A stretch of 64,000 nt of DNA from a virus, in IMG/VR virus record IMGVR_UViG_3300028864_000019, positions 32,001-96,000 of that record; one strand, 5' to 3'. The notes under the pieces are model-generated. The model was given only the letters and a program-made list of their open reading frames with translations, made no database searches and was not told where the DNA came from. Positions 12,730 through 30,822 of the stretch are shown here, one piece after another. Made by a program: the position numbers and the translations under genes. Positions within the stretch are counted from its first letter, which is position 1. The number at the start of each line of letters is the position of its first letter.

Positions 12730-12785
12730 CTTTCTTTTATTTTTAATTTATTAAATTTCATTTAAAAGTAACATTTCATTCTAAT

Positions 12786-12992
12786 TTATCTATATAGTCT
12801 TAACTCTTTTATGCTTCCAATCAACTTAGATATTGAATCAATTCCAAACAATGATACCCATACATGCGAACAGGTTTGTGCAAGCAGTCCGGACACGGAA
12901 TATTTTATAGCTAATCCTATAGTGACAATCGTCAGCCCCGTAGTCACTATTGCTACTACTATAAATGCGTTGTATAGTTCTTTACTATTCAT
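12786..12992 (-). CDS. small membrane protein
   Basis: Hydrophobic segments; GAGGAG RBS. Confidence 0.6.
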   Translation of the reverse strand: MNSKELYNAFIVVAIVTTGLTIVTIGLAIKYSVSGLLAQTCSHVWVSLFGIDSISKLIGSIKELRLYR

Positions 12993-13179
12993 ATTTTCAA
13001 GCTCCTCATAATTATTAAGCTGATTTAATTTTTATAATCTTCTTGTAACCCTAACTTATATTTTAATTCATATAACTTTTCTTGCTTTAAAATTATTTCT
13101 GCTTCTAATTCTATTATATCTTCTTGAATATCATAAATCTCGTCTTTAGTCTCATTAATCATATCTTCTTTATTCATAT

Positions 13180-13470
13180 TTATCCCCTCACCTTATCTTC
13201 CTTTTTATTGATATGCAATAAAAATACTCTTTCGATATCTTTCACATCTTTTTCAAATTGTTCATCATCATAAATATCACCACTATTAACTATATTTATA
13301 AAAGGAACTATTGCTTCTTCTGTATCATTACAATTAATAAATAAGTCTGGATCTAATCCATATTCATTTTGAATCATATCAATAAATTCTTCACTTAATT
13401 CGCTTACTTTCCTAGCAGTATCATTAATTTGTATTAGTTTTCTCTTTAATTTTGATGGCAATTTATTCAA
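13180..13470 (-). CDS. hypothetical protein
   Basis: 96-aa ORF, GAGGTG RBS, TTG start. Confidence 0.65.
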   Translation of the reverse strand: MNKLPSKLKRKLIQINDTARKVSELSEEFIDMIQNEYGLDPDLFINCNDTEEAIVPFINIVNSGDIYDDEQFEKDVKDIERVFLLHINKKEDKVRG

Positions 13471-13543
13471 TTCTCAACACCTCTTAGTATTAATAATATT
13501 ACCAATTTACCTAGACTCTAAACCTATAAAATCAGATTTTTAT

Positions 13544-14089
13544 TCATTTGTCATTTTCTATATATTTAATAATTTCTTCTTTAAATTTTCTTAATTTTTG
13601 CAACTCTTCATCATCAGTTAATCCTAATAAATAATCGATACTAACATTGAGTAATTCAGCCATTAAAATTAGTTTTTCCGTATCTGGATAATTGACTCCA
13701 GTAGTATATTTACTGACTGTAGATTTTGTTATATTTAGTTTTTTTGCTAGTTCAGATTGTGACATATCGTTTTTATATAATACACCAATTAATCTTTTTG
13801 CAAAAATTTCTTTATTATTAGGATTATTTAACGCTTCATTTAAATTATTTTCAACTGTAAAATCTTTATTACTTATTTCTGTTACATATAACAAATCATC
13901 AATACTAATTTTCAATACCTTTGCTATGTTTGAAAGAATTTCCATTCTTGGAGTCCTATTACCTGTTAGATATCTTGATATTGTGGCTTCCGTTACCCCT
14001 ACTTTCTCTGAGAACTCTTTTTGAGTTAAATTAACAATTTCTAATTCTGCCGCAAGTCTTTCAGCAAATGTTTTATTAATGTTTCTCAC
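13544..14089 (-). CDS. Double XRE-HTH regulator
   Basis: Two HTH_3 repeats (LTQKEFSEKVGVTEATISRY; MSQSELAKKLNITKSTVSKY). Confidence 0.9.
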   Translation of the reverse strand: MRNINKTFAERLAAELEIVNLTQKEFSEKVGVTEATISRYLTGNRTPRMEILSNIAKVLKISIDDLLYVTEISNKDFTVENNLNEALNNPNNKEIFAKRLIGVLYKNDMSQSELAKKLNITKSTVSKYTTGVNYPDTEKLILMAELLNVSIDYLLGLTDDEELQKLRKFKEEIIKYIENDK

Positions 14090-14339
14090 TCCTTAACTTT
14101 ATAAAATTCCTATCTTATTTAGATTCATCGTCTTTCCATATACAAGCATAAATATCATCCTTACAAACATAAGTTAGTTTATTAGTATTGTTTAATTGTA
14201 TTTGATATGGACAACAATTATCAGGTTTATGACATTCATATATATTTTTACTCATTACTTCACTTCCTTTATATTTATAATATTATACCATTTTACTAAA
14301 TTTTAGTCACTTTTGATAAAAGATTTAATTTATAGGGTT

Positions 14340-15263
14340 TTATAAATCCTCCATAACGTTTTTCATACGCTCTTCGTCCATTGTTATATATACTCTCGAA
14401 GTGTTGATATTTTCATGCCCTAAAACTTCTGCTACCATTAAAATATCTTTAGTTTTTCTGTATACATTAGTTCCTACGGTATGCCTTGTAGTATGTGTTA
14501 CATATTTCTTATCTGTAAGACGTGCTATTTTGTATAATTTTTTCATCATAACTTGCACTGAACTTTTATCAATACCCCTTCTAAAATTTGATATGAATAG
14601 AACATTCTTATATTCCTCATCAACACCTTCTACTATTCTATTTTCCATATATTCTTTTATTGCTTCTAAACATTTTTTATTTAAATAAACAGAATCTTCT
14701 TTATTTCCTTTTCTTAATATTAGTAATTTATTTTCTTGAATATCATTTAGTTTTATATGAGCAAGTTCTGAAACACGAATACCAGTATTTAATAGTATAG
14801 TCACAATACATTTATTTCTATAATAAAACATATCTTCACGATTCAAAGCATCATATATTTTTTCAACTTGTTCATCTGTAAATGCTATTGGAATTTTCTT
14901 ACCTATTTTGGGGCTATCTAAATCTTCTGCTATATTTGTAGCTACAATATTTTCTTTACGCAAATATTTCCAATAAGATCTTAAACAAGCAACCTTTCTA
15001 GCTCTTGCATATTCTGAATTTTCTAGTTTATTTTTTGAATAGTTTATAAATTTATTTAAATCGTATGTTTGTAATGATTTTAATGTTTTATTGGAAATTT
15101 CTTTTTTATTTTTGTAATCTTTCAAGAATGTAAAAAATACTCTTAAATCTGATTCATACCCTGATATTGTTGTTTTAGCTTTATTATCTGTATTTAATTG
15201 TTCTAAAAAATCCATTGCTGATAATGGTAATTTTATATTATTTTTCTTTTCCATGATTGTCAC
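14340..15263 (-). CDS. XerC/D-like tyrosine recombinase
   Basis: Full catalytic set: TGIRVSEL, RKGNKE, HTTRHT, LGHENINTSRVY. Confidence 0.95.
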   Translation of the reverse strand: MTIMEKKNNIKLPLSAMDFLEQLNTDNKAKTTISGYESDLRVFFTFLKDYKNKKEISNKTLKSLQTYDLNKFINYSKNKLENSEYARARKVACLRSYWKYLRKENIVATNIAEDLDSPKIGKKIPIAFTDEQVEKIYDALNREDMFYYRNKCIVTILLNTGIRVSELAHIKLNDIQENKLLILRKGNKEDSVYLNKKCLEAIKEYMENRIVEGVDEEYKNVLFISNFRRGIDKSSVQVMMKKLYKIARLTDKKYVTHTTRHTVGTNVYRKTKDILMVAEVLGHENINTSRVYITMDEERMKNVMEDL

Positions 15264-15416
15264 TCCTTATTTTTTTGTTTACATATGTAATATTACAATT
15301 TGTTTTAGTAATTATATTTTTTATATTAATTTTATGCAAGTTATAAGAAAAATATTCCTTATAACCTCTGAAAACTAACACTAATAACTTGGTAAATTGA
15401 TAGTTTTAGCATCTTA

Positions 15417-15821
15417 TTACATACCCATTTTAACATCTATACCTTGCCATATTATACTCCAAATACAAGCAAATCCACATAAGATTATATCGCCCCACCA
15501 AAATATATCATTATGAGTTATAAAATTTAATATCAAACTAAGTATTCCTAACATTACACTTATCCAAAATACCATATTTATAAATTTACTATCTTCTTTA
15601 TAAACTTTATTACTATGACACATATCATGCCTATAATTTTTATTTTCACAACATGGACAAATAACATAGTCTGATGATGATTTATTATTTCTATCATTCA
15701 TATAAAAATCATTTTCATGAAAAATGTGACTACATACTTTTTCTTTCCCTTTCTTATTTTTATAGAAACCTCCACAAAAATAAGAACTCTTTGTATAATA
15801 ATTTTCTTCAATACTTTTCAT
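15417..15821 (-). CDS. Membrane protein with Cys/His-rich N-terminus
   Basis: CSHIF...CPCC followed by two transmembrane segments. Confidence 0.65.
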   Translation of the reverse strand: MKSIEENYYTKSSYFCGGFYKNKKGKEKVCSHIFHENDFYMNDRNNKSSSDYVICPCCENKNYRHDMCHSNKVYKEDSKFINMVFWISVMLGILSLILNFITHNDIFWWGDIILCGFACIWSIIWQGIDVKMGM

Positions 15822-15879
15822 AACACTATATCCTTCCTTAATTTATTATATTCTATTAAATCAATGTATTTATCAACTT

Positions 15880-16071
15880 TTATAAAATATGTCCACCTAA
15901 TTCAATGCTCCACTCATTTAATCTAAATATTCCATATGCACCATTGTATTTAACCTCATATCCAATTAAATCATGGTTTGAATTATATAACTCATTACTT
16001 ATTATTCCTTTATAAGTAATTGTTGTACCACCTATTTTCTTAACACATTTGATAGACCTCAATTCTCCCAC
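15880..16071 (-). CDS. hypothetical protein
   Basis: 63-aa ORF in array. Confidence 0.5.
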   Translation of the reverse strand: MGELRSIKCVKKIGGTTITYKGIISNELYNSNHDLIGYEVKYNGAYGIFRLNEWSIELGGHIL

Positions 16072-16310
16072 CTCACTTCCAATGAAATTATGATATTATT
16101 GCCTTATCTATCAACTTCAACTTCCATTCCTAAATCTTCTAATAAATCTTTAATATTACACGCCAACTCTCTTACACCACATTGCGAATCAAATGACCAT
16201 CCATTTACCCAAATCATAGTATCTCCTATTTCAATTATAACCTTTTTCTTTTCATCTTCCATTTTCTCTTTCCTCCTAAACTCAATATTTTAATGACTCT
16301 TCAATTAGCA

Positions 16311-16634
16311 TCAAAACACAAGCAACCCATATTTTTCAATATATCCTTTTAAATCCATAGGCATGTTATCAAATAATCTAAACAAAAAGTATTGATAACT
16401 ATTAACTTTCATTAATTCATCTTTGTGTATACCTACTGTCAGGTTACTAAATTGATATTGAAGATTTTTATCTATAAAAGATATTCCTAAAACTAAATAA
16501 TCTGCATCATTGAATCCTTTAATGTTCATTCCAGAAATTTTTGTATGATTGTAATAGTTCATCCAATCCATAATATTATATTCAATTGTTTGACCAATTT
16601 TTATAACTTTAGCATTCTCTTTAAAATTTTTCAT
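16311..16634 (-). CDS. hypothetical protein
   Basis: 107-aa ORF, GAGAGGA RBS. Confidence 0.65.
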   Translation of the reverse strand: MKNFKENAKVIKIGQTIEYNIMDWMNYYNHTKISGMNIKGFNDADYLVLGISFIDKNLQYQFSNLTVGIHKDELMKVNSYQYFLFRLFDNMPMDLKGYIEKYGLLVF

Positions 16635-17010
16635 ATAAATAATCCTCTCTTATATTTTATTTTATTTGCACTAATTCAACTTCATCAGTTTTCAATCTTC
16701 TAATTCCTCCATATGTAAATAATTCAATGGTATCACCTTTAACAAATCCTATAAATACTTTATCCTTTAGTTTATCATCATTTAATATTTTAAAAGCTCC
16801 CAATGTTATCTTACCTCCTGAATCCCACTATATTTTTTCTTTGTTTATTCTTAGTAACATCTTTATAGCTAATTCATATTCTCCAGCTTCTAATAACCCT
16901 TTTATAATACCTTTCATTTCAACTACCTCCTATTTGTTATTTTCTTAATCTCTTTTCTATATTATAGCATTTATATTTCAATATTGCAATACTTTATATA
17001 TTAATTTATT

Positions 17011-17301
17011 TTAATAATTATACAATCCCAGATCTTTATGAATTGCCTTGTAAAATAACGCCATAACTTCAGCTTCTTTGAGGTAATGACACCTTACATT
17101 TCTTTCACCATCTTGATTACTCATTACAAAATCATACGTTAAGAATCCATCTACTGTTATGCTAATTTTGTAATACTCGTAGCTATCTTCATCTATAATA
17201 TACTCTAAGCAACCGTTTATATACATATTATCTTTTCTATAAGTAACACACCATTCATCTCCTAAGATTGCATTTAACTTTAACATTAAATTATATAACA
17301 T
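17011..17301 (-). CDS. hypothetical protein
   Basis: 96-aa ORF, AAGGAG RBS. Confidence 0.65.
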   Translation of the reverse strand: MLYNLMLKLNAILGDEWCVTYRKDNMYINGCLEYIIDEDSYEYYKISITVDGFLTYDFVMSNQDGERNVRCHYLKEAEVMALFYKAIHKDLGLYNY

Positions 17302-17596
17302 TTCAACTTGCTCCTTATTTAATTTGCTTCTTTGATATATTATATTCAGCTATACTTAAAATAGTACCACAAAAATAATAAATTAATATAATAACTTAAA
17401 AACTATATATAGATAAACTATCCCAACCAATATGCAAATGCTCCTATACTTAAAATTAATAATATAATCAATATCCTAACTATTATTCCCATATAATTAT
17501 AACTCAATTTAACATCAAATATTTTATTGTCTATGTGAAATTTTCTACTTTGGTATAGATACTCACTTATTTCTTTTTTAGATTTCATTATATCGC

Positions 17597-17908
17597 CTAC
17601 TTTCTATTCATTTCCATTTCTAAAATAATATTTACTGTATGCTTACCCATATCATCAAGACTATTATATTTATCTAACAGTTTCTTTTCACTTTCAGTTA
17701 AATAATTATTATTCCAACCCATTAACCAATCAGGAGCGACTTCTAATATATCAGCTAATCTTTCTATCTTATCAAAAGGTATATTTGATATTACACCACT
17801 TTCATATCTTTGTAATGTTGGCTTACTTACTCCTAGTTTTCTAGATACTTCGTCTAATGTCATATTTAATTCTAATCTTCTATTTTTAATATTCTCTTTA
17901 AAACTCAT
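17597..17908 (-). CDS. XRE-family HTH regulator (repressor-like)
   Basis: IKNRRLELNMTLDEVSRKLGVSKPTLQRYESG...PDWLMG. Confidence 0.9.
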   Translation of the reverse strand: MSFKENIKNRRLELNMTLDEVSRKLGVSKPTLQRYESGVISNIPFDKIERLADILEVAPDWLMGWNNNYLTESEKKLLDKYNSLDDMGKHTVNIILEMEMNRK

Positions 17909-18095
17909 AATTTTCTTCCTTTATAACTCTTCTTTGCTCTCTTTGAAGAACTAAATTAGCCATATTCATATAAAAATCCTGTTCTTCCTTTGTTTTTGCC
18001 TCATTAAATAATTCCTTTAACTCTGAATATGAATACTTTAAAAACTGATTATACAAATTAAAATTCGATTTGTTATCCATAATATAATTCTCCAT
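17898..18095 (-). CDS. small hypothetical protein overlapping the XRE gene start
   Basis: 65-aa ORF, coupled to 17597..17908. Confidence 0.6.
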   Translation of the reverse strand: MENYIMDNKSNFNLYNQFLKYSYSELKELFNEAKTKEEQDFYMNMANLVLQREQRRVIKEENYEF

Positions 18096-18338
18096 TCATT
18101 TTATATACATATAATTATATCATATATTTATTTTAATATTATACTATATAATTCTCAAAATATTCCAGTTATTTTTAACGTAAAATACCGAATTTAATTG
18201 CTTATTTTTCTACAGGTCTTATTATATTACCTACCTTATTACAACCTCGTGGTGAGCCTTGTGACGTTACTATATAAGTAATTTCTCTGCAACAAAAAAG
18301 AGTACAAAGATTTTTCTTTATACTCTCAATAATTTAAT

Positions 18339-18863
18339 TTAGAATCCAGTTACTTCTGCTAATTTATACGTTGCAACTGCATCATCTGTATCTATTCCCA
18401 TTGCTTTAAATTTCCATGTACCGTCTTTGGCTAAATTATTTACATTTGCAATAGCTGTTCCTAATTGATTACCATCTTTGTCAAATAAATTATATGTTAC
18501 TTGAACATAATTTAATTCTTTTCCTGAGTTGTTTTTAATTATCCCTTCTATATGAATAGCAAATGAATCTTTTGAACTTGTAACTTCTCCAACAAATTCA
18601 TATTTTTCTTTTGGTTTCTCTTCAACTTTTAGAGTTTCTGTTTTTGTTTCTTGTTTGTCTACACTTGCATTTGTTTGAGTTAAATCTGTTTTAGTCTTAC
18701 TTCCTCCCGATCCTATTGCTCCCAATAAGAAGAATACTACAATAGTAATAAACCACCATCTTAAATAAATAGGCTTTTTATTTTTAGCACCACAACTAGG
18801 ACAAGACTTAGCACTTTTTGCAATTTCAATTCCACAAGTTTTACATTTAATCATTTTAGGCAT
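18339..18863 (-). CDS. Zinc-ribbon + TM + FxLYD-domain surface protein (superinfection-exclusion-like architecture)
   Basis: CKTCG...CPSCG, KKPIYLRWWF-TM, GIIKNNSGKELNYVQVTYNLFDKDGNQLG. Confidence 0.8.
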   Translation of the reverse strand: MPKMIKCKTCGIEIAKSAKSCPSCGAKNKKPIYLRWWFITIVVFFLLGAIGSGGSKTKTDLTQTNASVDKQETKTETLKVEEKPKEKYEFVGEVTSSKDSFAIHIEGIIKNNSGKELNYVQVTYNLFDKDGNQLGTAIANVNNLAKDGTWKFKAMGIDTDDAVATYKLAEVTGF

Positions 18864-18990
18864 TTTCAGCTCTCCTCATTATTTATTATTATAATTTTAA
18901 TTTATTTATATAAGCACAACATACAGTTATGTATCTATTTAAAATACCGTATGTTGTGTTAAAGGTCTTGTTTTTAATGAAATAACGCTT

Positions 18991-19224
18991 TTAAAAGAAT
19001 TTAAATTTATTGTCATGTAAATCAAACCTAATTTCATAATTAATGCTCTTTGGTTCTACATGATTTTCTTCAGATAGCTCTATTATTGATTTTAAATTTT
19101 CAAACACTTCATTAACTACTTCTTTGTCAGTTTTATTATGTTCTTCTATTATTGTTTCTACTATATCTGATATACATATAACTTTAGAAAAATCATTGTT
19201 GTTTATAATCTTGTATTGCTTCAT
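18991..19224 (-). CDS. hypothetical protein
   Basis: 77-aa ORF, AAGGAGTG RBS. Confidence 0.65.
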   Translation of the reverse strand: MKQYKIINNNDFSKVICISDIVETIIEEHNKTDKEVVNEVFENLKSIIELSEENHVEPKSINYEIRFDLHDNKFKFF

Positions 19225-19288
19225 TTTTAATCACTCCTTAATTATTAATTGATAATTATTTTCAATAAAACTCTTGATTTATTGTCTT

Positions 19289-19840
19289 TTATTTTTTTAA
19301 ATCTTCTAAAGCTTTTAATTCTTTTTCATATGCTGACATTTTAGATTCTATATAATCTTTTCTTCTATTAATTGCTTCAACTAATTCATTTTCATACTCT
19401 TCTTTCGTTGCCAACTCATATTCTTTACTATCTTCTAATACATATTCCACTTTTAAACTGCAATTATTCTTAATTTCATATTTCCCATCAAAGTCATAAT
19501 CTAGCCACAATCCACCATAAAATTCTTTTGTTCTATTTAGTTTTAATATTTCTTTCTTGTCTTTAATATACTCAGGTAAATCATCTACAAACTCATATTC
19601 CCAGTCCTTAAGCCATAATTCTTCATCATTATACTGTATACAAATCATTTCTTCATAGTCATAACTATACAAGACATCAAATGTTTTTCCTACTGAATCC
19701 TTATATTCACTATTTAATATAGATTCACATTCTAAAACTTTTGCTTTTCTAAATTTAAATGATTCTTTCTCTAAAATATATTCACCATCTTTTATTAATT
19801 GTTCTACAAAGCCATTTTCATATTTCTTCATGAATATCAA
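19289..19840 (-). CDS. hypothetical protein
   Basis: ORF with GAGGAG RBS. Confidence 0.7.
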   Translation of the reverse strand: MIFMKKYENGFVEQLIKDGEYILEKESFKFRKAKVLECESILNSEYKDSVGKTFDVLYSYDYEEMICIQYNDEELWLKDWEYEFVDDLPEYIKDKKEILKLNRTKEFYGGLWLDYDFDGKYEIKNNCSLKVEYVLEDSKEYELATKEEYENELVEAINRRKDYIESKMSAYEKELKALEDLKK

Positions 19841-19886
19841 CTCCTCAATATTTAATTATATTATAACTCCGATTAAAAGAACTATT

Positions 19887-20666
19887 TTAAGCCAACATAT
19901 TATTTTTATTGTATAAATATCTTAAACCATCAGCTAAGTTCTTTAAAGCTTCTGGTGATGGTTTATTGCATCTTACGGTTATAGTCACTTCTCTACCACC
20001 AATAATTCTCTTATCAACCGTTGTAGTCCACTCGCTTTTATTAACAGATTCAACTTCCTCTAAATCAACTGCCTTTATTTCCTTTTCATTTAATGATTGA
20101 CATACAACATTTATTTCTAATGGAATATTTCTTTTTCTATCTCTATAATTTTTAGAAATGAATCTAGCTATATATTCTATTTTAATATCAACATCTCTAT
20201 ATTCATTGTTATCTTTTACGAAATCATCATATAAGTATTTTATCATAGAATATTCTTTTTGTATTTTTGCTAAATTTAATGACATAAATTTATGTTTATA
20301 ATCATCATATTGTTTAGATGATTTTTTATTGCTCTTTATTAATACAGGAATTAATTTATCTATTATTGTATTTATATAATCACTAATATTTTTATAATTT
20401 TTTGTAACAGCTTTTAATAAACTTGTATTGAAGTCTTTCTCCCAATTATTACATAACTTAATTAACTTGAAAATCTCAAACATTTCATATCCTTCGGTTG
20501 GAATATGAACAAATTTCAAAGGTTCGTATTTTTCAAATTCTGATTTTATAAAGTTAGCATTAATATTATATTTTTCTAGTTCTAATTTTAATCCTTCTAT
20601 AGTTGCGTTTCTGTTCCCGTACATATATTTTTTAACTATAGTCTCATATCTTTTTATTTGTGGCAT
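19887..20666 (-). CDS. hypothetical protein
   Basis: 259-aa ORF, AGGAGG RBS. Confidence 0.75.
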   Translation of the reverse strand: MPQIKRYETIVKKYMYGNRNATIEGLKLELEKYNINANFIKSEFEKYEPLKFVHIPTEGYEMFEIFKLIKLCNNWEKDFNTSLLKAVTKNYKNISDYINTIIDKLIPVLIKSNKKSSKQYDDYKHKFMSLNLAKIQKEYSMIKYLYDDFVKDNNEYRDVDIKIEYIARFISKNYRDRKRNIPLEINVVCQSLNEKEIKAVDLEEVESVNKSEWTTTVDKRIIGGREVTITVRCNKPSPEALKNLADGLRYLYNKNNMLA

Positions 20667-20743
20667 ATCAATATCCTCCTAATTTCATTCTTAATTCTCT
20701 TATGATAGTACACGATTTAACATGTACTAAGCTAAAAGAACTC

Positions 20744-21220
20744 TTATTTATTCATTAATACATTTATTAACATTCTATACTCATTAGGTATTAAACTCAA
20801 TACTAAGCTATTGTCTGTGTACTTTAAAGCCTTATCAAAATTATTTTCTATACTAAAAGTTATGAATGATTTTATATATCTTTCTTGATTATTTCTAGTA
20901 ACACCTTCAAAATTATTTAAATAGCTTTCTAACTCGTTAGTATTAATCTCTAAAATATCTTTATCAATTGCATCTATAAATCTTTTAACTGCACTCTTAT
21001 ATTGAGGTAGGCTTGATTTAGTTTTACCACTGTTACTCTCAAAGTTATTCCAGTATTCTTGATTAATCCCTTTGATTGAATAAAGTTCTTTTCTAACTTC
21101 TAACCCCTTATAAAATTGCTCCCCTTTATGATAATTTCCTTTAGTTGTACTATTTGATGCTATCAAATTATTTGATCTAGATTTATAACTTTCAAAATTT
21201 ACAAGTTCCATATAAAACAC
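20744..21220 (-). CDS. Protein resembling an isolated integrase core-binding (SAM-like) domain
   Basis: KSSLPQYKSAVKRF...DILEINTNELESYL...TRNNQERYIKSFITF; no catalytic domain. Confidence 0.5.
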   Translation of the reverse strand: MFYMELVNFESYKSRSNNLIASNSTTKGNYHKGEQFYKGLEVRKELYSIKGINQEYWNNFESNSGKTKSSLPQYKSAVKRFIDAIDKDILEINTNELESYLNNFEGVTRNNQERYIKSFITFSIENNFDKALKYTDNSLVLSLIPNEYRMLINVLMNK

Positions 21221-21503
21221 TCCTCATTAATATTTAATTACTTTTTATGTAGCATTTCCGTAACTCTTATCTTATATTCATTATAAATCTTTTCTTTATA
21301 AATTGCAATACTTCTTACATTAATTTATTGAATTATTTTTTATACTAAGCAACTTATATTATTCAAAATCCATTCTAATGAAGTACCACGTTCTAATAAT
21401 TCCTGTACTTTTCCCACAAAGCTTAAATTTATATTGATATTTTCCTTTGTACAACTTTCTACAATCTTACTGTATATATTTATACTCATATGTATTACCT
21501 CCT

Positions 21504-21698
21504 TTACCAAACTTGTATATATGGTGTTTTTATAATTTTCTTAGTTGGATTACCTAAAGTACCACCCCACTCAACTTTTACATCAACACATTCTTTTACA
21601 TTACTTAATCTGCAATTACCATTCATCATATCATAAACTTTTATTTCAATATCATCTGGATAATCTTTTATTTTTTCTAAAAATTCACCTTTGGTCAT
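21504..21698 (-). CDS. small phage protein (MTxxELxEKLxxYPDD type)
   Basis: MTKGEFLEKIKDYPDDIEI; AGGAGG RBS. Confidence 0.65.
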   Translation of the reverse strand: MTKGEFLEKIKDYPDDIEIKVYDMMNGNCRLSNVKECVDVKVEWGGTLGNPTKKIIKTPYIQVW

Positions 21699-21752
21699 TT
21701 TATTTCCCTCCTATATTTTACAATTAAAATTTGATTTTTATCAGCTTATTTT

Positions 21753-22737: not shown

Positions 22738-22808
22738 ATTAGTCTCTCCTTTAATTTATTATTATATAGTATTTTAAACCATTTAAAAGTGGAATTTGAT
22801 TAAAAACA

Positions 22809-23096
22809 TTAATATGCATCCCAAAGCATATATTCACCATTCATAAGTTCACTTAGTATTAAAGTTCCTTCAATTGAAGCACTCCTTAAATAATTTTCTT
22901 TTCCATATTCTTCACGCATAAATTCTTCTTCGTATAGATCTGATATAAGTAAATTTTTATCTTTTTTATATTTTTCAATAACATAGTTTATTGCTTCATC
23001 TTCATCATCAAATATATAAAACATATCATATACATCTTCACCTCGTAATTCTATTGGAATTTCAAAATTATCTTTACATGTTTTCATTAAAATCAT
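22809..23096 (-). CDS. hypothetical acidic protein
   Basis: ORF with AAGGAG RBS. Confidence 0.65.
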   Translation of the reverse strand: MILMKTCKDNFEIPIELRGEDVYDMFYIFDDEDEAINYVIEKYKKDKNLLISDLYEEEFMREEYGKENYLRSASIEGTLILSELMNGEYMLWDAY

Positions 23097-23151
23097 CTCC
23101 TTAAAATTATTTTTATCTGCTTTGCTTTAAAATGCAAGTTTGATTGGAACT

Positions 23152-23391
23152 CTAAACAACAAAATACTTACTATCCCATCTCTTGAAAATTTTATTTTTA
23201 TCTCTTTTCTTTACATGAAATAATATATTCTGTCTTCTAAATTGCATATATCCTTTTGTATTTTTATCTTTATATATTAGTAGTTCTCTATTATATATAA
23301 GATGCTTCAAATCATATGTATAATAGCTTATAAATAATATTAAACGCTGATACCAGTATAAATTCTTTATATCAATTAAATTTTTCCACAT
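23152..23391 (-). CDS. hypothetical protein
   Basis: 79-aa ORF; start may lie further upstream. Confidence 0.5.
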   Translation of the reverse strand: MWKNLIDIKNLYWYQRLILFISYYTYDLKHLIYNRELLIYKDKNTKGYMQFRRQNILFHVKKRDKNKIFKRWDSKYFVV

Positions 23392-23500
23392 ATCGTTAAC
23401 TTCCTGAAGTTATTTTTTTTTCTCAAAAGAGACTATAAACAACCCTGCAAATAATCCCTCCTTACACCTTAATTCTTTATGTAGTACTTTATATAATATA

Positions 23501-24340
23501 TTAAATTGCTGGTGCTAAATCTTCTATTACTTTTTCTAAAGGTTTTTCTATAACCTTGCCGTCCTTTAATAATTTATTATATATGTATGTAATTCCTATA
23601 GGTTTCAAAAGTGTTTTATAGTTAGTTTGTCCTGTCCATTGATTAATTACTGGAATAACTTTAAAATACTTTGTATAAGCTTGATAAGGTACATTATTAG
23701 ACATTAATATCTTTTTATCTTTTAACCAAGCAAATAGTCTTGTTCTCCCTAATTCTTTAGATTCTAATATTTTAGCATATGTACCAATATCATAACAATT
23801 ATTTGTATTTACAAACTTGTCTACCAAACTTACAATAGGTTTCATTTCAGCATTCTCATCTTTTAATAATAAATTTTCTTCTTTCAGTCTAGTTACTTTG
23901 TTTTGTAAAATAGTCATAGCTTGGAGAATAAATTCATCATCTGACATTTCACCACCAGATACTTTTTCTTCTCCATTTATGTACGCTCCATCTTTTCTAA
24001 TTGCAGGGATAACTACTCCTGTGATCCATTTTTTAAAATCTTTAGCTATCTTAAATCTTTCAGGATTTCTTTTAGTTATAGATAATACTGAATTATATAA
24101 TCCACTTTCATTAATTACTAAACATTCTTGCTCCCCTCCAAGGGTAAGCAAAGTTTGCGTATCCTTCTCATCATCATCTAAATTCCTTGTCATATCAGTA
24201 GCTTTGTTATATTGTAATACTTTTGCAACATCTGAACCCATAAACCAAATTACATTGTCAATTTCAATTGCTCTTACCTCACCAAACCTTTCATTTAAAA
24301 ATTCTTGTACTTTATTACCCATAATTCTCTCTTCCTTCAT
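23501..24340 (-). CDS. BRO-N / KilAC phage antirepressor
   Basis: FGEVRAI...WFMGSDVA, INESGLY, FKKWIT..VIPAIRKDGAY, LGRTRLFAWLK. Confidence 0.92.
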   Translation of the reverse strand: MKEERIMGNKVQEFLNERFGEVRAIEIDNVIWFMGSDVAKVLQYNKATDMTRNLDDDEKDTQTLLTLGGEQECLVINESGLYNSVLSITKRNPERFKIAKDFKKWITGVVIPAIRKDGAYINGEEKVSGGEMSDDEFILQAMTILQNKVTRLKEENLLLKDENAEMKPIVSLVDKFVNTNNCYDIGTYAKILESKELGRTRLFAWLKDKKILMSNNVPYQAYTKYFKVIPVINQWTGQTNYKTLLKPIGITYIYNKLLKDGKVIEKPLEKVIEDLAPAI

Positions 24341-24415
24341 ATTTATTAAACATATTTTTTATTTAATATGCCTGTATAAGGATACCCCCGTATAAGATAT
24401 CCTTAAGCCTACATA

Positions 24416-25021
24416 CTATTCTGCATCAATTACCACATCTTCAACTATTGCCCTAGTAATATCAATACTTAACAACTTACAAATTAAATATGTCACATAT
24501 CCGTCCAATAATATATTTTCTTTATTAATTGTAATATCTTTATCAAATTTTTTATTAACTTTATAATAATTTAATCTTTCAGAAATTTTATCTATTGATG
24601 GCGGAGTTAATTTGAATGAATCTTGAATATTAATATTTTTTACATTAATATAAATTTTTTCTTTATTAAATTCATTGCATTTAGACTGTGCTTCTTCTTT
24701 GCTATAGAATAAATTTTCCTCAGCTCTATTTAAATTACTATGTCCACAATATCCTTTATATTTTACAGATGCTTTAAGATTACTATCTAAACTGACTTTA
24801 TAAGATGTTATTTGGAATGGTTCATCACAAACTACATGAATTTGCTTGTTAGATACAAACTTACCTTGTCCCATACATTCAGGACATCTCATAACTTTAT
24901 CATTGTATGTAATTGTCTTTTTACCCTCGCATACATGACAAACTTTTTCTTCTTTGATTTGCTTTATTGTATAGAATATCTCACCTTTTTCAAATTTAAC
25001 TGGTATTATTAATTCTTTCAT
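24416..25021 (-). CDS. DnaJ-type Zn-finger plus ParB-like C-terminal domain protein
   Basis: CHVCEG...CPECMGQG; ILLDGYVTYLI. Confidence 0.6.
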   Translation of the reverse strand: MKELIIPVKFEKGEIFYTIKQIKEEKVCHVCEGKKTITYNDKVMRCPECMGQGKFVSNKQIHVVCDEPFQITSYKVSLDSNLKASVKYKGYCGHSNLNRAEENLFYSKEEAQSKCNEFNKEKIYINVKNINIQDSFKLTPPSIDKISERLNYYKVNKKFDKDITINKENILLDGYVTYLICKLLSIDITRAIVEDVVIDAE

Positions 25022-25137
25022 TTTACATTTCTTCTTCTTACTTTAATTTATTTTTATTAATATTAGTATAAACTTTCCATTTTTAATTGTCAATTGCTTT
25101 TTATATTAATTTATCATAACCTATTCAAATGAGTAAT

Positions 25138-25662
25138 TTAATTACTCCATAAACAAGTTAAATTACCCATTGAATTATCAAAACAACCATATAAAAAGTT
25201 TAAATCTAAGTAATTATTTTCATTATTTAATCTTTCTTTTAAGAATCCATTATCTTCATTCTCTATATCATCTATAAAGTTATTCCAGCTACTTGATATA
25301 AAGTTAATAAATCCTTCATCGTTTCCACGCTCTTTAAATCTTCTTATCCATTCTACTTTTAAATCTTTATTAGGATATACCATAATAACTTTAATATTAT
25401 TCTCTTTTAGAGCTTTCCTAACATTATCATGGCTTGATACAAATATTACATCAACTTTTCCTATATTCTCTTTGATATGCTTAATATAATTCGTAGGAAA
25501 CTCAGGATTCCTCTCTTTAGTATTATTACTATTCTCGTCTTTAACCCAACTAAATTCACTACTGTCGCTATCTAACATAGCATATATATCTTGATGATTC
25601 CTAAAACAATAACTCTTTCCACATGCAGGAAATGCACTAATTACAAATGTTTGTTTTCTCAT
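25138..25662 (-). CDS. Small P-loop NTPase/kinase
   Basis: VISAFPACGKSY, DSDSSEFSW, FPTNY. Confidence 0.75.
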   Translation of the reverse strand: MRKQTFVISAFPACGKSYCFRNHQDIYAMLDSDSSEFSWVKDENSNNTKERNPEFPTNYIKHIKENIGKVDVIFVSSHDNVRKALKENNIKVIMVYPNKDLKVEWIRRFKERGNDEGFINFISSSWNNFIDDIENEDNGFLKERLNNENNYLDLNFLYGCFDNSMGNLTCLWSN

Positions 25663-25697
25663 ATTTTTATACCTCTTTCTTTTTTATTTTTTTTAAT

Positions 25698-25967
25698 TTA
25701 GTCTATTTCAATATTAATATTATAATCGTTTTTGATATCCATAAATTCATGATCTTGAATATCAAATATTCTATATAAAATATCCCCAATTATTTCATCT
25801 TTATTAATTAATTCAAGTCTAATTTGACAATCTTCTTTTCTGTAACAACCACCCATATTATTTATAGATTTTCTAATATTCATCCTTTCTTGTAATAATG
25901 TTTCCATTGCTCTTTCTACATCTCTTTTACTTTGTGTAATTTTTAAAATTCCATTTTCAATTTTCAT
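25698..25967 (-). CDS. hypothetical protein
   Basis: AGGAGG RBS. Confidence 0.65.
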   Translation of the reverse strand: MKIENGILKITQSKRDVERAMETLLQERMNIRKSINNMGGCYRKEDCQIRLELINKDEIIGDILYRIFDIQDHEFMDIKNDYNINIEID

Positions 25968-26097
25968 TTTCTTCCTCCTAATTTTAATTGATAATTATTA
26001 TTGATAAAATTCATGTTTTATTTACTATTGATTATTATTTTCAATTAGTTCTATGTAAAAGAAAAGGAACTTATTAAAAGCTCCTGAATTATAATTA

Positions 26098-26343
26098 TTA
26101 CTTATCTACTGCATTTGCTAAAGCTTCAGCAAAATCAAAACTCTCTCTATATTCCTTACAATTAAATTGAATCTTTTCGTCTGTTATGCCGTCTTCAATA
26201 CATCTGCAACAATCACCAGTTAACCAATCACCACATGCAGTTGCTCCATGTTTATGAATATATTTTTTAAATACTTCTTCATTTACAGAAATTTTATCTT
26301 CACCTAGACTAATTGTTTTCTTAAATTCAAATAGTTTATCCAT
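26098..26343 (-). CDS. small Cys-rich hypothetical protein
   Basis: ACGD...DCCRC...C; AAAGGA RBS. Confidence 0.65.
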   Translation of the reverse strand: MDKLFEFKKTISLGEDKISVNEEVFKKYIHKHGATACGDWLTGDCCRCIEDGITDEKIQFNCKEYRESFDFAEALANAVDK

Positions 26344-26537
26344 TTTTATATTCCTTTCTTTTTTATATACTTTTTATTACGGTTTATTTTACTAATTTTA
26401 ACATACTATTTCATATTCTTCTAATATTATTTTATACGCTCTAGACCTTCTTTTGTTAACTATATAAAATCTTTATTAGTTTTTATTAGATTTTAAAAAG
26501 GAACTACAAAAAAATAGTAGTTATCTCTTTATTACTA

Positions 26538-26981
26538 TTACCAATCTAACCCAACTAATTTATCGCCCTTTACTTCCCAACATAGATTTTTTAATTGTTC
26601 TAACAAACTCATATTATACCATTGGATACTTCTATTTCTAAAACTTGATGCAGAATGAGCATATATTTTTTGTTCCTTTAACCATTTTTCTAACTCTGAC
26701 ATGTTATTATTGAAATCTTTTAAATTTATATTACCTTTATAATTTGCTTTTATATCAAATGTTATATAAACATCTCTATCAACATTTTCTAGACTTAAAA
26801 CATTTTTTGTAAATTTTTTTTCTATAATGTCTCTATCACTTTCTTTTTGTTTCTTCAATTCTTCTCTCTTTTTATCTAAAATTATTTTTAATAAAGTTTC
26901 TCTCTTTTCTATTTCTCTTAACTCTTTTTCCATTTCTTCAACTTCATTATTTAATTTATTACTTAGCATATTAACAACCAC
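26538..26981 (-). CDS. hypothetical protein
   Basis: 147-aa ORF with its own promoter. Confidence 0.7.
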   Translation of the reverse strand: MVVNMLSNKLNNEVEEMEKELREIEKRETLLKIILDKKREELKKQKESDRDIIEKKFTKNVLSLENVDRDVYITFDIKANYKGNINLKDFNNNMSELEKWLKEQKIYAHSASSFRNRSIQWYNMSLLEQLKNLCWEVKGDKLVGLDW

Positions 26982-27130
26982 CTTTATATTTAATTTATTT
27001 CTTTTATGTATCTCTTATCTATGTACTTAGTATATCATGGTTTAATCTAATTGTACATAGATTTTAAACAAATTAATAGAAAACTAATCTACATATTCCC
27101 TTAAAATAATCAGTTTATCATAATATTCCT

Positions 27131-27331
27131 TTACACTATAACTAATATATTATCATTATTATTAAAAATTATATCTTTTACAGTTGCGAAAATTATTGTC
27201 TTATTATATTCTTTTGCTAACTGTTTTAACATCTCTTTATCTGCCTTGTTAAGTTGTGCACTTCCTACCATTAAAATATCTTTTTCATTTTCTTGTAGTT
27301 CTTTTAATACTTTAGATACATATATATTCAT
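27131..27331 (-). CDS. hypothetical protein
   Basis: 66-aa ORF with RBS. Confidence 0.55.
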   Translation of the reverse strand: MNIYVSKVLKELQENEKDILMVGSAQLNKADKEMLKQLAKEYNKTIIFATVKDIIFNNNDNILVIV

Positions 27332-27384
27332 CGTTAATAACTTCCTTTTCTTTTGATTTAATTATTTCACAGTTTTAATTTATT

Positions 27385-27576
27385 TTAATCCTCCAACTTA
27401 CCTACTAATCTTTCAAGCTCATCAATTGATAAGTTAAATGTTTCGGGTTTGCCTTTATATCCTATGTATTGATGCACTCTTACTGCTACTTTGCCTAGTA
27501 CTATTATTTTTATAGCTCCTAATTTTTTAGTTTCATATATATTGCCTTGTTTCATATTCAACAACCCCTTAATCAC
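27385..27576 (-). CDS. hypothetical protein
   Basis: Follows a TTGACT-17-TATAAT promoter. Confidence 0.6.
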   Translation of the reverse strand: MIKGLLNMKQGNIYETKKLGAIKIIVLGKVAVRVHQYIGYKGKPETFNLSIDELERLVGKLED

Positions 27577-27845
27577 ATTAATTTATTTCCGTGGTATCTC
27601 TTATCTATGTATTAATTATAATGCTATATTAAATCAAAGTCAATAACAAATTAATATATAAACAAAAATTATTTTCTGGTGGTTTTGTAGTCAATATAGA
27701 AGTTTTAAGCGTGTTTTGTTTTTAATGGTAACTTATACTATATTTTGATTTGTGAGCGTTCTGTGGCTTATATGAGCTTAATTTTATCTATATATAAGGT
27801 TGTTAGTATTAACTAGTATTTATATTAACAACCTTATTTTTTATT

Positions 27846-29066
27846 TTACATTTCATCAATGAACTTTTTAGTTCTTTCAATTCCTGCATTGTAATCTGCT
27901 TCTGAATTGTAAACTTCTGCTATGAAATCACCCTCGCAATAAGTCAATATTGTTTTTAATTCATTGTTATATATATTCATTTGGTAATATTCAATATATA
28001 AATCCCTATAGCCCTTGTTTTGATAAAGTTCATACAATATACCTTTATCTATTGATCCTCTGTAAATCGTTCTAGTAGCTTCTATTGTTTCATTATCTGC
28101 ATAGATATTAATTACCTTTTTAAGTTCCTCATTATCTGTATTTATTTTAAATGGTAATATTTCATAGTTATCTAACATCTCATCATATTTGTTATGAGTA
28201 ACTTTGTTTTTGTTTTCTTGTTTGTCTGCTGATACTTCTAAATTATTTAATGTATAGCCTTTATATAAATTCCATTGGAATAGTTCGCCTGCTCCAATAC
28301 TATTAATTTCTATATCGTGTTTATGATGTCCACTTATTCCAATTGTTACAACTATTTTATTATCTTTATATATTAATACTTCTTGTAGGTTGATCCAATA
28401 TTTATCACAACTTAAAACATACTCTTGAATTTCTTGAGGTAGTTCGTTCCAGTTTGTAATATATACAGTTTTTAAAGTTTCAATATTATTAAAATCGTTA
28501 GCATTTGGACAAATTTGTTTTTCTATCATTTCATCTAATAAACTATAGTAATATTTTAAATGATTTGCAATTCCTTTTAATTCTATTTCGTTTTGTTCAT
28601 TTTCAAAATTATATTCTTCAATAGTCTTATATATTTTATCTATAAAAGTGCTAACAACTTCAAATGATTCTTTTTGAGTTTCTAAAGATTCAGTATTGAT
28701 TGATAAAATTACCTTTGAAGATTCTTTTTTTAATTCTTCTAATACTGAAGGTTCAACTTCTACAATTTCTTGAACTACTTCAACTGGATTAAGTTCTTTT
28801 ACTGCTATTATAGTGTCGTTTCTTATAGTTCTTGTATCTTCTTGCATTTCAGAAATCCATTTACCATCTTCAAGTCTTGCATGTTCATTGATATATTCAC
28901 AAGTAACTATTACACTTTTACCAGTTTTATTAGATTCAATTCTTATTATTTTTTCAGTTGATCCAAAATTAAAAACTCTTTCATCTCCAACCTTTAAGTT
29001 AATAGCTTTGATTCCTTCAACTATTCCAATTCCTTGTAGTCTTAAAATTCCTTCAAATTCTCTCAT
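27846..29066 (-). CDS. hypothetical (probably early) protein
   Basis: 406-aa ORF, AAGGAG RBS, consensus promoter upstream. Confidence 0.8.
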   Translation of the reverse strand: MREFEGILRLQGIGIVEGIKAINLKVGDERVFNFGSTEKIIRIESNKTGKSVIVTCEYINEHARLEDGKWISEMQEDTRTIRNDTIIAVKELNPVEVVQEIVEVEPSVLEELKKESSKVILSINTESLETQKESFEVVSTFIDKIYKTIEEYNFENEQNEIELKGIANHLKYYYSLLDEMIEKQICPNANDFNNIETLKTVYITNWNELPQEIQEYVLSCDKYWINLQEVLIYKDNKIVVTIGISGHHKHDIEINSIGAGELFQWNLYKGYTLNNLEVSADKQENKNKVTHNKYDEMLDNYEILPFKINTDNEELKKVINIYADNETIEATRTIYRGSIDKGILYELYQNKGYRDLYIEYYQMNIYNNELKTILTYCEGDFIAEVYNSEADYNAGIERTKKFIDEM

Positions 29067-29189
29067 TTTGATCTCCTTATATGCTTTTCAGGATTAAGCA
29101 TAACCATATATTTTTTACTTTTAATATTAATTTGTTTTATTCCTATGTAAGTTACAAGTTGTAACTTGTTTCTGTTCTCTATATATACT

Positions 29190-29218
29190 ATTATACGCTC
29201 GTGTTTAGATAATGTCAA
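29190..29218 (-). promoter_or_regulatory. Perfect-consensus sigma-A promoter
   Basis: TTGACA-17 bp-TATAAT on the minus strand, flanked by AACAAATTAAT operator-like boxes. Confidence 0.85.
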
Positions 29219-29556
29219 CAAATTAATGTAGAAACAACTGATATTTTTTAATTATTTTTAGGCAATAAAAAGAAGCTTTTTCAAGCTCCAGTTATTTATA
29301 TTATAGTCAGATAATATTTTAATAAATTTTATCTCTTAAATACTCTCTTATGCTTCCAAATGCTCTAGTTTTCAAGGGTATAATTAGAATAAAATGGATA
29401 TTTTAAAGATATATGTAAAGCTCATATGGACGTTTTAAGATTATATATTTTTATATGTGTTATTCGTTGCTGAATTGATTTAATGTTGATCTGGTGGTTT
29501 GTATGATGTTTAGTTTATTAATTTTAGACATTAAAAAAGAAGGTCTTTTAACCTCC

Positions 29557-29946
29557 TTAATTATTAAACCATTCTATTAATTCATTTTCGTTATTACACT
29601 CGAACAATAATTCATCAAAATTATTGTCCCACCCATAAACCACAAATTTAAAATTATCTGCATCATCTATATTAATTGAATATATAAGTTGACCATCTGC
29701 ACCTGAAATATTGAGTTCATCGTAAGCTCTGTGATTTTTAAACCAAATATGCATATCTTGTGAGTCAAATTTTGAATCTTTAATATTTTTAATTATATTC
29801 CCCATGTAAATTGTTTTATCCCTTAATTGTCCATCTTTACAGTTCCAATCAAACCAGCCTGCATCAATTTGTGTATCTATTTTCTTTTTATTAAAATCTC
29901 CATTGTTAAATTTTTCAATCCATTGATTCATGTTTATTTTTATCAT
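29557..29946 (-). CDS. hypothetical phage protein
   Basis: QIDAGWFDWNCKD..L..KT motif; AAGGAG RBS. Confidence 0.75.
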   Translation of the reverse strand: MIKINMNQWIEKFNNGDFNKKKIDTQIDAGWFDWNCKDGQLRDKTIYMGNIIKNIKDSKFDSQDMHIWFKNHRAYDELNISGADGQLIYSINIDDADNFKFVVYGWDNNFDELLFECNNENELIEWFNN

Positions 29947-30114
29947 TATTAATTTACTCCTTTATATCTTAGTTGTTTTGCTTCTTTAATATATTATATG
30001 ATTTATGCACCTAAAAGATTCCTATTTAAATTAAATATATTAATTTATTTCTGACTACTTAAAAGTTGAAATTTATTAGCTGACAAACTAAAAAGAAGCC
30101 TTTCAGCTTCTTAA

Positions 30115-30330
30115 TTAATTTATACATATTGTTTTTAATGGTCTTGGTGCTACCATATCATCACTCATAAGTGATAAACTAAAATGTTTTGAAAAACGTT
30201 GGCTATTTTTGAAATTGTTATACATCTTTTTAGCTTCTGCAATAGTTGAACATTCAATATTGAATGATTGTACTTGATCAAAATTTCTTCCCCTTCTGCA
30301 AGATATTGAGAATGTTGATATTTTATTCAT
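30115..30330 (-). CDS. small hypothetical protein
   Basis: AAAGGAG RBS; followed by a terminator hairpin. Confidence 0.65.
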   Translation of the reverse strand: MNKISTFSISCRRGRNFDQVQSFNIECSTIAEAKKMYNNFKNSQRFSKHFSLSLMSDDMVAPRPLKTICIN

Positions 30331-30386
30331 TTTAAAAACTCCTTTGATATATACCTTAACCGCCTTGTAGGTCGGTGGTGTTTTTT

Positions 30387-30445
30387 GTAAGTGACCACTT
30401 TTTCAAGTGGTTTCGTATCAATTTTCAGATACTCTTCAGACTTAC
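30387..30445 (-). ncRNA. Type I hammerhead ribozyme
   Basis: Minus strand GUAAGU-CUGAAGA-GUAUC(ugaaaauu)GAUAC-GAAA-CCACUU(gaaa)AAGUGG-UC-ACUUAC: complete core and three perfect stems; cleavage after GUC (between 30393 and 30392). Confidence 0.93.
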
Positions 30446-30577
30446 TTATTTTACTCTGTTTATATATTCCATTCGTTTGATACTATTTAAACTGCTCCAA
30501 CTTGGATAAATTCCTAAACTTTCACATTCTGCATAATATAAATCAATTGCTTTTTCTCTTATTTCTAAAGTTATCAT
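30446..30577 (-). CDS. small hypothetical protein (43 aa)
   Basis: MITLEIREKAIDLYYAECESLGIYPSW...; AAGGAG RBS; stop codon abuts the hammerhead. Confidence 0.65.
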   Translation of the reverse strand: MITLEIREKAIDLYYAECESLGIYPSWSSLNSIKRMEYINRVK

Positions 30578-30822
30578 TTTAAAATCTCCTTAATATTTGC
30601 CTTAACCACTATTTCTAGTTGGTGGTTTTTAATTTGCTTTATCTTTATAATTTATTATATGCTTATTAGATTATAATTACCACAACTTTTTAATAGATTA
30701 ATGTATAAACCATTCGACAAATTGCGATAAAACTGAGTTTTTATTTGGATATTGATTATTTATTTCAATTAAAATAGGAATAAAAAGAAAAGGATATATA
30801 AAAATATACCCTCAATACCTTT

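Follow-up and report, generated by a model that had tools for sequence, protein, structure and literature searches.

The DNA described here is a 64,000-nt stretch, the window, which spans bases 32001-96000 of one 111,869-bp viral contig (IMG/VR record IMGVR_UViG_3300028864_000019; 25.9% GC), labeled G000 below. Across ~1-42 kb of the window nearly every gene is on the minus strand. Between the genes lies a short inverted repeat, TAAAA-N6-TTTTA, which we call the dyad: two five-base arms around a six-base core that changes from site to site. A first-pass annotation, made from the letters of the window, had noticed the motif next to the stop codons of accessory genes, and had read it as the possible mark of an integron-like array of single-gene cassettes that is shuffled by a tyrosine recombinase encoded within the array. 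The dyads and the other features of the window are collected in Table 1.

Judged by its genes, G000 is a distant SPbeta-like phage (Spbetavirus-like lineage): it has both a homolog of YonO, the single-chain RNA polymerase of SPbeta, and a YopQ-YopR repressor module. Only nine of its open reading frames (ORFs) match SPbeta at 1e-4, and a comparison of the window with the phage collection, by megablast and blastn, found no close DNA relative. The nearest named relatives by protein are from Clostridium, and the host is probably of the Clostridium type.

Table 1. Dyads and other features of the window. G001, G002 and G004 are related genomes and L003 is a related metagenome contig; positions in the fourth column are those of the relatives.
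Feature	Position	Strand	Dyad with the same core in relatives	Remarks
Exact dyad, + strand core TTTCCC	2784..2799			Intergenic; a leader-like conserved element follows on the sense (-) strand
Exact dyad, core TTACTT	6590..6605		L003 6442, G004 42406 (same 16-mer; both syntenic)	Between the YopR-like and MazF-like genes; ~30 nt downstream of a promoter-like site, TTGACA-17-TAAAAT
YopR/MrpR/SroF-like recombinase-fold protein, 385 aa	6934..8091	-		Pfam MrpR_N_CB, 6e-5; homologs with PF22822 and PF22823
YopQ/SroE-like protein, 478 aa	8081..9517	-		tblastn vs. SPbeta yopQ, 2e-11; DndB/DGQHR-like (ParB-fold kind)
One-mismatch dyad, address GTAACA (+) = TGTTAC on sense (-)	12763..12778		L003 870, G004 36043 (perfect dyads; both syntenic)	Lower edge of a 764-bp slot
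Exact dyad, address ATCTGA on sense (-) = TCAGAT (+)	13527..13542		G001 133511, G004 35381, L003 111 (identical 16-mer)	Flanks unrelated to those of the relatives
One-mismatch dyad, address GATTTA	14317..14332		G001 132092, G002 37154, G004 33844 (perfect dyads)	7 nt past the stop of the Xer-like gene, which is adjacent in G002 and G004 too
Xer-type tyrosine recombinase, 307 aa	14340..15263	-		Pfam Phage_integrase, 6e-33, and a SAM-like N-terminal domain
Exact dyad, core GAACTA	19874..19889		G002 41612 (identical 16-mer)	Its TAA is the stop of ORF 19887..20666
Exact dyad, core TTTGAT	21725..21740		G002 42740, G004 25716 (identical)
Exact dyad, core TTCATG	26005..26020			A terminator-like hairpin and a promoter-like site lie upstream of it
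One-mismatch dyad, core TAATCA	27102..27117		G001 122989 (perfect dyad)	Slightly out of order in G001, hence weak support
Exact dyad, core TGGATA	29390..29405
Exact dyad, core CTGAGT	30728..30743		G001 126605 (identical)
Exact dyad, core GCAACA	35747..35762		G001 104938 (identical)
Exact dyad, coding	42770
Exact dyad	57592..57607			After the YonO-like gene
Exact dyad	58584..58599			Its TAA is the stop of ORF 58116..58586
Exact dyad	60933..60948
tRNA gene	61568-61654	+		Rfam RF00005, 51 bits

An inverted repeat with a fixed six-base spacing

Thirteen exact copies of the dyad are found in the window, as against 0-5 when the same arms are placed at any spacing from 0 to 14 other than six. The whole of G000 has 27 (0-6 at any other spacing), 26 of them intergenic, compared with 0-2 intergenic copies at other spacings; the genes were called with a crude ORF caller that leaves 19% of the genome intergenic, which makes such fractions approximate. 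When all 5-mer dyads were scanned de novo at all spacings, TAAAA-N6-TTTTA was the sole outlier, and the N6 excess is absent from 61 unrelated viral loci (486 kb, 66% AT). The looser pattern of the first-pass annotation behaves in the same way: it occurs in the window 14 times at N6 and 0-4 times at other spacings, and its 25 strand-matches compare with 6.65 ± 3.0 in shuffled sequence. As the genome is AT-rich (~26% GC overall, 24% in intergenic DNA), the dyad could be a chance product of such DNA. The probability of this is negligible, being refuted by the specificity for N6, the shuffles, the unrelated AT-rich loci and the conservation across genomes described below. The motif is thus real, as it stands out from all the matched controls.

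The sites themselves needed revision. Of the 20 positions listed in the first-pass annotation, seven are exact dyads (given there as 2783, 13526, 19873, 21724, 26004, 29389 and 30727), 12 carry one mismatch and one (15856) carries two, while exact copies at 6590, 35747, 57592, 58584 and 60933, and a coding copy at 42770, were overlooked. Taken together, matches with one mismatch show no excess at N6 (27, as against 28 at N5 and 37 at N7), and several of these copies are therefore probably due to chance. Three of them, 12762, 14316 and 27101, are backed by core orthology, perfect dyads with the same core being present in relatives. Nor is there an array limited to 12762-30744: dyads are dispersed throughout the genome, one per 1-7 kb, far beyond 12.7-30.7 kb. 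They do lie close to stop codons, but this is largely because they are intergenic in a tightly packed genome.

The dyad is not peculiar to G000: a comparable excess is seen in seven relatives scanned as whole genomes and in SPbeta. A profile of the YopR-like protein retrieved one genome from IMG/VR, G001 (196 kb), and the 12-kb metagenome contig L003; a search for YopR-like loci in IMG/VR with a single protein gave no match, and a scan of genome contigs gave none. The whole-genome counts are 45 dyads in G001, 39 in G002, 27 in G003, 32 in G004, 28 in G005 and 23 in G006, with 0-7 in a reversed-pattern control; taking other spacings together with that control, the counts in relatives are 0-14. 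A scan of IMG/VR with one exact 16-mer found 81 loci, about twenty of which hold 3-6 dyads and none at other spacings. Some of these loci belong to relatives of Bacillus phage SPbeta, and in SPbeta itself (NC_001884) there are 33 dyads, unannotated in the record, where other spacings give 0-3. Several of the SPbeta dyads abut stem-loops annotated in that record or sites of SPBRE, the operator of the repressor MrpR. Searches of the literature returned no description of it: one with the dyad as a pattern gave only an unrelated archaeal regulator, and the SPbeta reviews are silent. The element seems to have escaped description so far, in a model genome that is 25 years old and holds 33 copies.

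When the half-sites are superposed, conservation extends past the 5-bp arm, with pyrimidines at -5 and -4, a T (or A) at -6 and an A or T at -1; C and G are nearly excluded from the last two positions. The logo of the half-site reads T-Y-Y-n-n-W-TAAAA, and because of these additional positions the unit is taken to be ~28 bp, arranged as 11-6-11. SPbeta favors TCT where G000-type genomes favor TCC or TTC. In most sites the first base of the core is T or G. Among 105 sites of three genomes (27, 45 and 33 sites), no core is duplicated within a genome and none is palindromic. The early impression that the arms are conserved and the core is different each time was therefore correct.

Could the dyad act in RNA, as an intercistronic hairpin for termination, cistron stability or processing? 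Its location would suit such a role, as dyads are found just past stop codons and ahead of the next ribosome-binding site (RBS) in co-directional operons, some of them near terminator-like hairpins. However, eight dyads of the window, taken as RNA with 8-nt flanks, folded no more stably than shuffled sequence (0 to -2.7 kcal/mol, z-scores near 0); on these energies the intrinsic terminator, or any RNA hairpin, was rejected. It is also the sequence itself that is conserved and not pairing alone, conservation of the loop site by site would be left unexplained, and true GC-containing terminators exist separately nearby. Function in RNA is accordingly quite improbable.

Several other elements known from DNA of this kind were set aside as well. 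A sigma-70 promoter or UP element was rejected since the distance from the dyad to -35 and -10 sequences is not fixed. Some dyads do adjoin promoters, SPBRE sites or terminators, and many are wedged between a stop codon and the next RBS, leaving no space for a promoter. A YonO promoter was rejected because one YonO start site is known in SPbeta, vs. 33 dyads. A ComK box (A4-N5-T4), like a Type I restriction target, has the wrong spacing or half-site length, and either would leave the intergenic bias unexplained.

Other repeats keep company with the dyads. In the G000-type genomes, ~18 of 127 dyads are followed by a conserved box, TTAATAAATTAA, at a fixed offset of 11-12 nt downstream on the sense strand and before the RBS (for example at G000 4252, 7228 and 14921), which may serve as a promoter element or as an accessory binding site. 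Three dyads, those at 2784 and 29390 of the window (repeat at ~2700-2770 and 29320-29389, sense strand minus) and one at G000 27656, are followed by a leader-like repeat (cTTGAAAAAC.GAGCA...GAGAGAGT). This repeat has no Rfam match; an Rfam search of the window returned only the tRNA. A non-coding stretch of 210 bp at window 2419-2626 is 86.7% identical to G001 143813-144020, in genomes that barely align. These stretches could be a non-coding RNA or a promoter for an alternative sigma factor. A second repeat, AGAATGWGGCTATRACTAGGTTGTAGC, adjoins five dyads near both ends of the contig, outside the window (G000 ~20-60, 4270-4310, 7250-7290, 30130-30170 and 111790-111830), and is also found beside the orthologous dyad of G001.

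Cores, slots and junctions

G000 and G001 have only ~10 kb of alignable DNA, and a blastp match in G001 exists for 36 of the 181 G000 ORFs. Identical dyad 16-mers common to G000 and a relative number 10 for G001, seven for G002 and eight for G004, where ~1.7 would be expected by chance and SPbeta, the out-group control, has two. Those in G001, G002 and G004 are collinear without exception and keep one relative orientation. The flanks of the dyads shared with G001 are 25-60% identical over 60 bp, which is near random. Further G000 sites, with one mismatch each, have the same core as a perfect dyad in syntenic position in a relative.

The DNA between consecutive shared addresses is of a different kind. 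There are mostly no homologous ORFs in it, and the number and length of the ORFs differ. These intervals, or slots, span 0.3-30 kb and generally contain several ORFs, at variance with the single-gene cassettes proposed at first. The slot from 13527 to 12763 may serve as an example: its 764 bp contain ORFs of 96, 50 and 68 aa, whereas the 759 bp of its counterpart in L003 (111-870) contain ORFs of 72, 40 and 60 aa. Only the two dyads can be aligned there, while the neighboring YopQ and YopR genes are 86-89% identical. Similarly, the slot 19874-21725 has no ORF homologous to those in the corresponding slot of G002. Several slots of G001 are just 240-500 bp, and at G001 26709-26746, just downstream of a tyrosine-recombinase gene, two dyads of different core stand 6 bp apart; both the pair and the short slots look like empty slots.

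Breakpoints of gene content between relatives coincide with the motif, same-core dyads being collinear and the ORFs between them non-homologous. Of the two conditions that the first-pass annotation set for its own refutation, breakpoints unrelated to the motif and a lack of enrichment over controls, neither holds. The analogy drawn there with Tn916, whose integrase tolerates heterologous 6-bp coupling sequences, is reversed by the data: here the cores are conserved site by site.

The junctions can also be studied directly. There are 15 pairs of same-core dyads with one conserved flank (identity of 85% or more over 100 nt) and one divergent flank (50% or less), and in these the divergence begins 0-5 bp from the dyad. 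When the core was not preset, 18 pairs were alike on one flank only; the cores were identical in 15, one nucleotide apart in three and unrelated in none. Ends of homology blocks fall within 10 bp of a dyad in 29 of 257 distinct cases, vs. 2.9 expected at random positions, and in 18 of 115 cases when the ends are intergenic, vs. 5.6 expected, figures to be read with the imprecision of the ends of BLAST high-scoring segments in mind, as well as the non-independence of junctions in near-identical loci (distinct junction dyads are ~5-6). From these counts the dyads are preferred junctions but not the only ones. In locus L079, a methyltransferase cassette of 853 bp, absent from locus L044, is bounded by a dyad of core TTGATA and a dyad-like GAGATA site; here a 9-bp direct repeat, GATATTTTA, covers half the core plus the arm.

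We consider it quite likely that the dyads are joints where modules are exchanged and that the core serves as a position-specific address. Phage genomes are mosaic, and it has long been asked why their junctions coincide so neatly with the borders of genes; linker sequences, selection after random joining, and relaxed homologous recombination are the answers usually given. The SPbeta-like family offers a discrete, countable junction sequence whose address is better conserved than the surrounding genes, and SPbeta or phi3T in B. subtilis, being a tractable model, allows the question to be put to a direct test.

Candidate agents at the dyad

The candidate catalyst in G000 is the product of the gene at 14340..15263. 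This gene encodes an intact Xer-type recombinase, as had been claimed: the catalytic R, K, HxxR, H and Y are all aligned, and its best relatives of solved structure are XerA, XerD and XerH. The further claim that the motif brackets the gene did not stand, as the copy of a conserved address at 14317 is degenerate and orthology lends no support to 15393. All seven family genomes tested carry one or more PF00589 genes. The dyad has the geometry of an Xer/dif-like core site, which consists of two ~11-bp inverted arms around a centre of 6-8 bp, and sites that are served by a single Xer recombinase have arms ending in GAAAA (PMC5357621).

Our tentative reading, held at somewhat less than even confidence, is that a phage tyrosine recombinase uses the dyad as its core-type site, and that the core is the address by which modules are exchanged in register. 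The candidate enzyme would place one monomer on each arm and carry out strand exchange over the 6-bp core. If, as in the tyrosine recombinase family, strand exchange required identical cores, the sites of one genome could not recombine together because every core differs, and deletions and inversions would not arise. Instead, a site would recombine with the site of identical core in a relative that is resident or infects the same cell, and a pair of such exchanges would trade the module lying between two addresses, in register. The need for identical central regions would account for cores that differ within a genome, stay conserved between genomes and exchange in register. It is our inference that the exchange is the work of a recombinase rather than of short-homology recombination, that such an enzyme binds and cuts at the dyads, which enzyme it is, and that core identity is needed. 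The wider proposition, that SPbeta-like phages, SPbeta included, own a natural address-coded cassette-exchange system with dozens of 28-bp sites and slot-specific cores, is possible rather than probable. If true, these phages would have a mechanism dedicated to mosaicism and to the turnover of accessory genes, one that leaves the phage's own genome unscrambled. If a recombinase does the exchange, the dyads would also be a natural orthogonal set of sites for multiplexed cassette exchange.

Several considerations count against a recombinase. No more than 5 bp of each arm is strictly conserved. The Xer-like recombinases are only 25-36% identical among the G000-type genomes and ~21% identical to SPbeta YopP, yet the arms are invariant. 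YopP shows, by eye, K in place of the second catalytic Arg, and the Bacillus-type phages share the junction pattern. The 5-6-5 geometry suits a helix-turn-helix (HTH) dimer such as CRP equally well. Some 85-90% of the ends of homology blocks are away from dyads. Short-homology recombination over 16-28 bp of identity would leave identical footprints. Finally, the SPbeta-type repressors SroE and SroD are said to bind many sites.

These considerations lead to a second reading, in which the dyad is an operator or nucleation site of a conserved DNA-binding protein of the SPbeta family, either SroE/YopQ (8081..9517, DndB/ParB-like) or the recombinase-fold auxiliary repressor SroD/YopP. A dimer bound at many intergenic sites would silence or insulate early operons, like KorB at the OB sites of RK2. 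Module exchange would then be a by-product of short-homology recombination between the only conserved sequences of the accessory regions. Such shuffling has a precedent in the PeSLs of T4-type phages. PeSLs are near-identical copies of ~50 bp that carry a strong sigma-70 promoter and a stable stem-loop terminator, and they recombine by homology. Like the dyads they are repeated intergenic motifs that flank variable genes, most of them unknown, and mark where related phages shuffle their modules; they are regulatory cassettes which mediate the shuffling (PMC2839356, PMC4122927). The dyads differ in being 16-28 bp, unfolded and without a fixed promoter, and in having site-specific cores, and are not PeSLs.

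In favor of an operator, the YopQ-like protein, which is DGxHR/DndB-like, is among the few proteins shared by SPbeta and G000, and SroE has been described as a second repressor, required for lysogeny by a mechanism that is unknown (bioRxiv 10.1101/2025.11.27.690993). The half-site centres of the dyad are 11 bp apart, typical of HTH dimers. The dyads that stand beside promoters, SPBRE or terminators, and the majority of breakpoints that lie elsewhere, fit an operator also. Against it, a spacer that is not read ought to drift, but the cores are identical in all six positions at syntenic sites whose flanks are randomized. The same logic by which only identical joints get exchanged could, however, maintain the identity of the cores here too. 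The many dyads without room for a promoter and the variable distance to -35 and -10 sequences do not favor an operator, nor does the identity of YopQ-like proteins, which falls to 26-31% across lineages that have the same arms, and to 29-31% among the related genomes compared here. On balance we hold an operator of this kind to be the main rival and a serious one, though somewhat less likely than a recombinase site. If SroE or SroD does bind the dyads, the second repressor of arbitrium phages would have its missing operator.

The other repressor of the module offers a third reading, in which the YopR/MrpR/SroF-like master repressor uses the dyad as its operator, as the equivalent of SPBRE. The YopR-like gene is present, and SPBRE is likewise a dispersed intergenic element of the SPbeta family with a recombinase-fold binder (PMC10516654). 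SPBRE as derived from SPbeta, ACAAATACAAAAAATATGTATA, is nevertheless a separate element: it has a different sequence with no 5-6-5 dyad, is present in ~10 near-identical copies at promoters, and coexists with the dyads in SPbeta, where the two stand side by side upstream of aimR in the order terminator, dyad, SPBRE, promoter. The number of sites differs as well, there being ~10 peaks of MrpR in chromatin affinity precipitation sequencing (ChAP-seq; PMC10516654) and 33 SPbeta dyads. SroF reads a box of 24-26 bp as a monomer, with a specificity that differs even between SPbeta and phi3T. The identity of the YopR-like protein to its relatives is 21-61%, dropping to 21-33%, while the arms and many cores are unchanged. 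For these reasons of sequence, site number and divergence, an MrpR/SPBRE operator was rejected. We regard it as highly improbable, and the protein of 6934..8091 as an unlikely binder of the dyad.

Known systems and neighboring genes

Recombinase-mediated cassette exchange with heterospecific lox or FRT sites is a laboratory method that uses 13-8-13 sites and Cre or Flp. Its sites resemble the dyads in having identical arms and differing spacers; sites of the same spacer recombine, and the segment between them is swapped without deletion. The dyads would be a natural system with a candidate enzyme and an exchange deduced from sequence, and they differ in having dozens of addresses per genome and an 11-6-11 arrangement. 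On this comparison the dyads would work most like heterospecific-spacer cassette exchange, and in appearance they are closest to pdif modules or Xer core sites.

The pdif (dif) modules of Acinetobacter plasmids are discrete accessory modules, met with in different contexts, that are bounded by 28-bp, 11-6-11 sites of the Xer type (PMC13141974, PMC6449649, PMC9947245). The pdif sites have distinct XerC and XerD arms, alternate in C/D and D/C orientation and are served by the host XerCD, and the modules change position. The dyads, by contrast, belong to a phage, with symmetric arms, a fixed order, one orientation relative to synteny and site-specific cores, and are not pdif sites. In difH/XerH and difSL/XerS, a single recombinase acts on near-palindromic arms, with the GAAAA inner ends mentioned above, around a central region (PMC5357621). 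Each of these is a single chromosomal site for dimer resolution beside the xer gene and has G as the inner base, whereas the dyads are dispersed in dozens and have T.

The integron, the model favored at first, is a poorer match. Like the dyads, attC sites are imperfect palindromes at the 3' ends of genes, with a tyrosine recombinase, IntI, encoded nearby. But an attC site is 57-141 bp, has R''-L''/L'-R' boxes, acts as a folded single strand, and travels with its cassette to be inserted at attI, which lies with Pc by intI. Integron cassettes are usually single promoterless genes, unlike the usually multi-ORF slots. At the dyads the order of sites is fixed while the cargo changes, the sites are 16-28 bp, and there is no attI/attC architecture; the 14340..15263 protein is Xer-like by its best matches. 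An integron was rejected on these grounds. Lastly, the parS and OB operators of ParB and KorB are dispersed palindromes of 13-16 bp, bound by a ParB-fold protein that the element itself encodes. In G000 a dispersed 16-bp palindrome is present, and the YopQ-like protein may be its binder; parS and OB sites are without a variable 6-bp core.

Regarding the genes that identify the phage, the YonO homolog is an ORF of 922 aa at 54759-57527 (+), 33.6% identical to YonO over 910 aa (E = 7e-130). A polymerase of this type is thereby found in a phage of 26% GC that is probably associated with Clostridium. The YopQ-like and YopR-like genes are adjacent and in the same orientation. A DndB match in Pfam was obtained for five of 15 YopQ-like homologs (weak, the best being 1.3e-5), and the D-G-x-H-R motif is invariant. 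The kinship with DndB/DGQHR proteins may give a clue to the mechanism of the "second repressor" of arbitrium phages.

Two paralogous genes of HNH endonucleases, 3836-4792 (-) and 11186-12145 (-), flank the repressor module (PHROG 953, E ~1e-60). Both match a single gene of G001, with 51-54% identity. It should also be noted that the contig of G000 starts one base ahead of a dyad (2-17, ATAAAAGACATCTTTTAT), which may be a coincidence, a physical end, or a point where the assembler cut.

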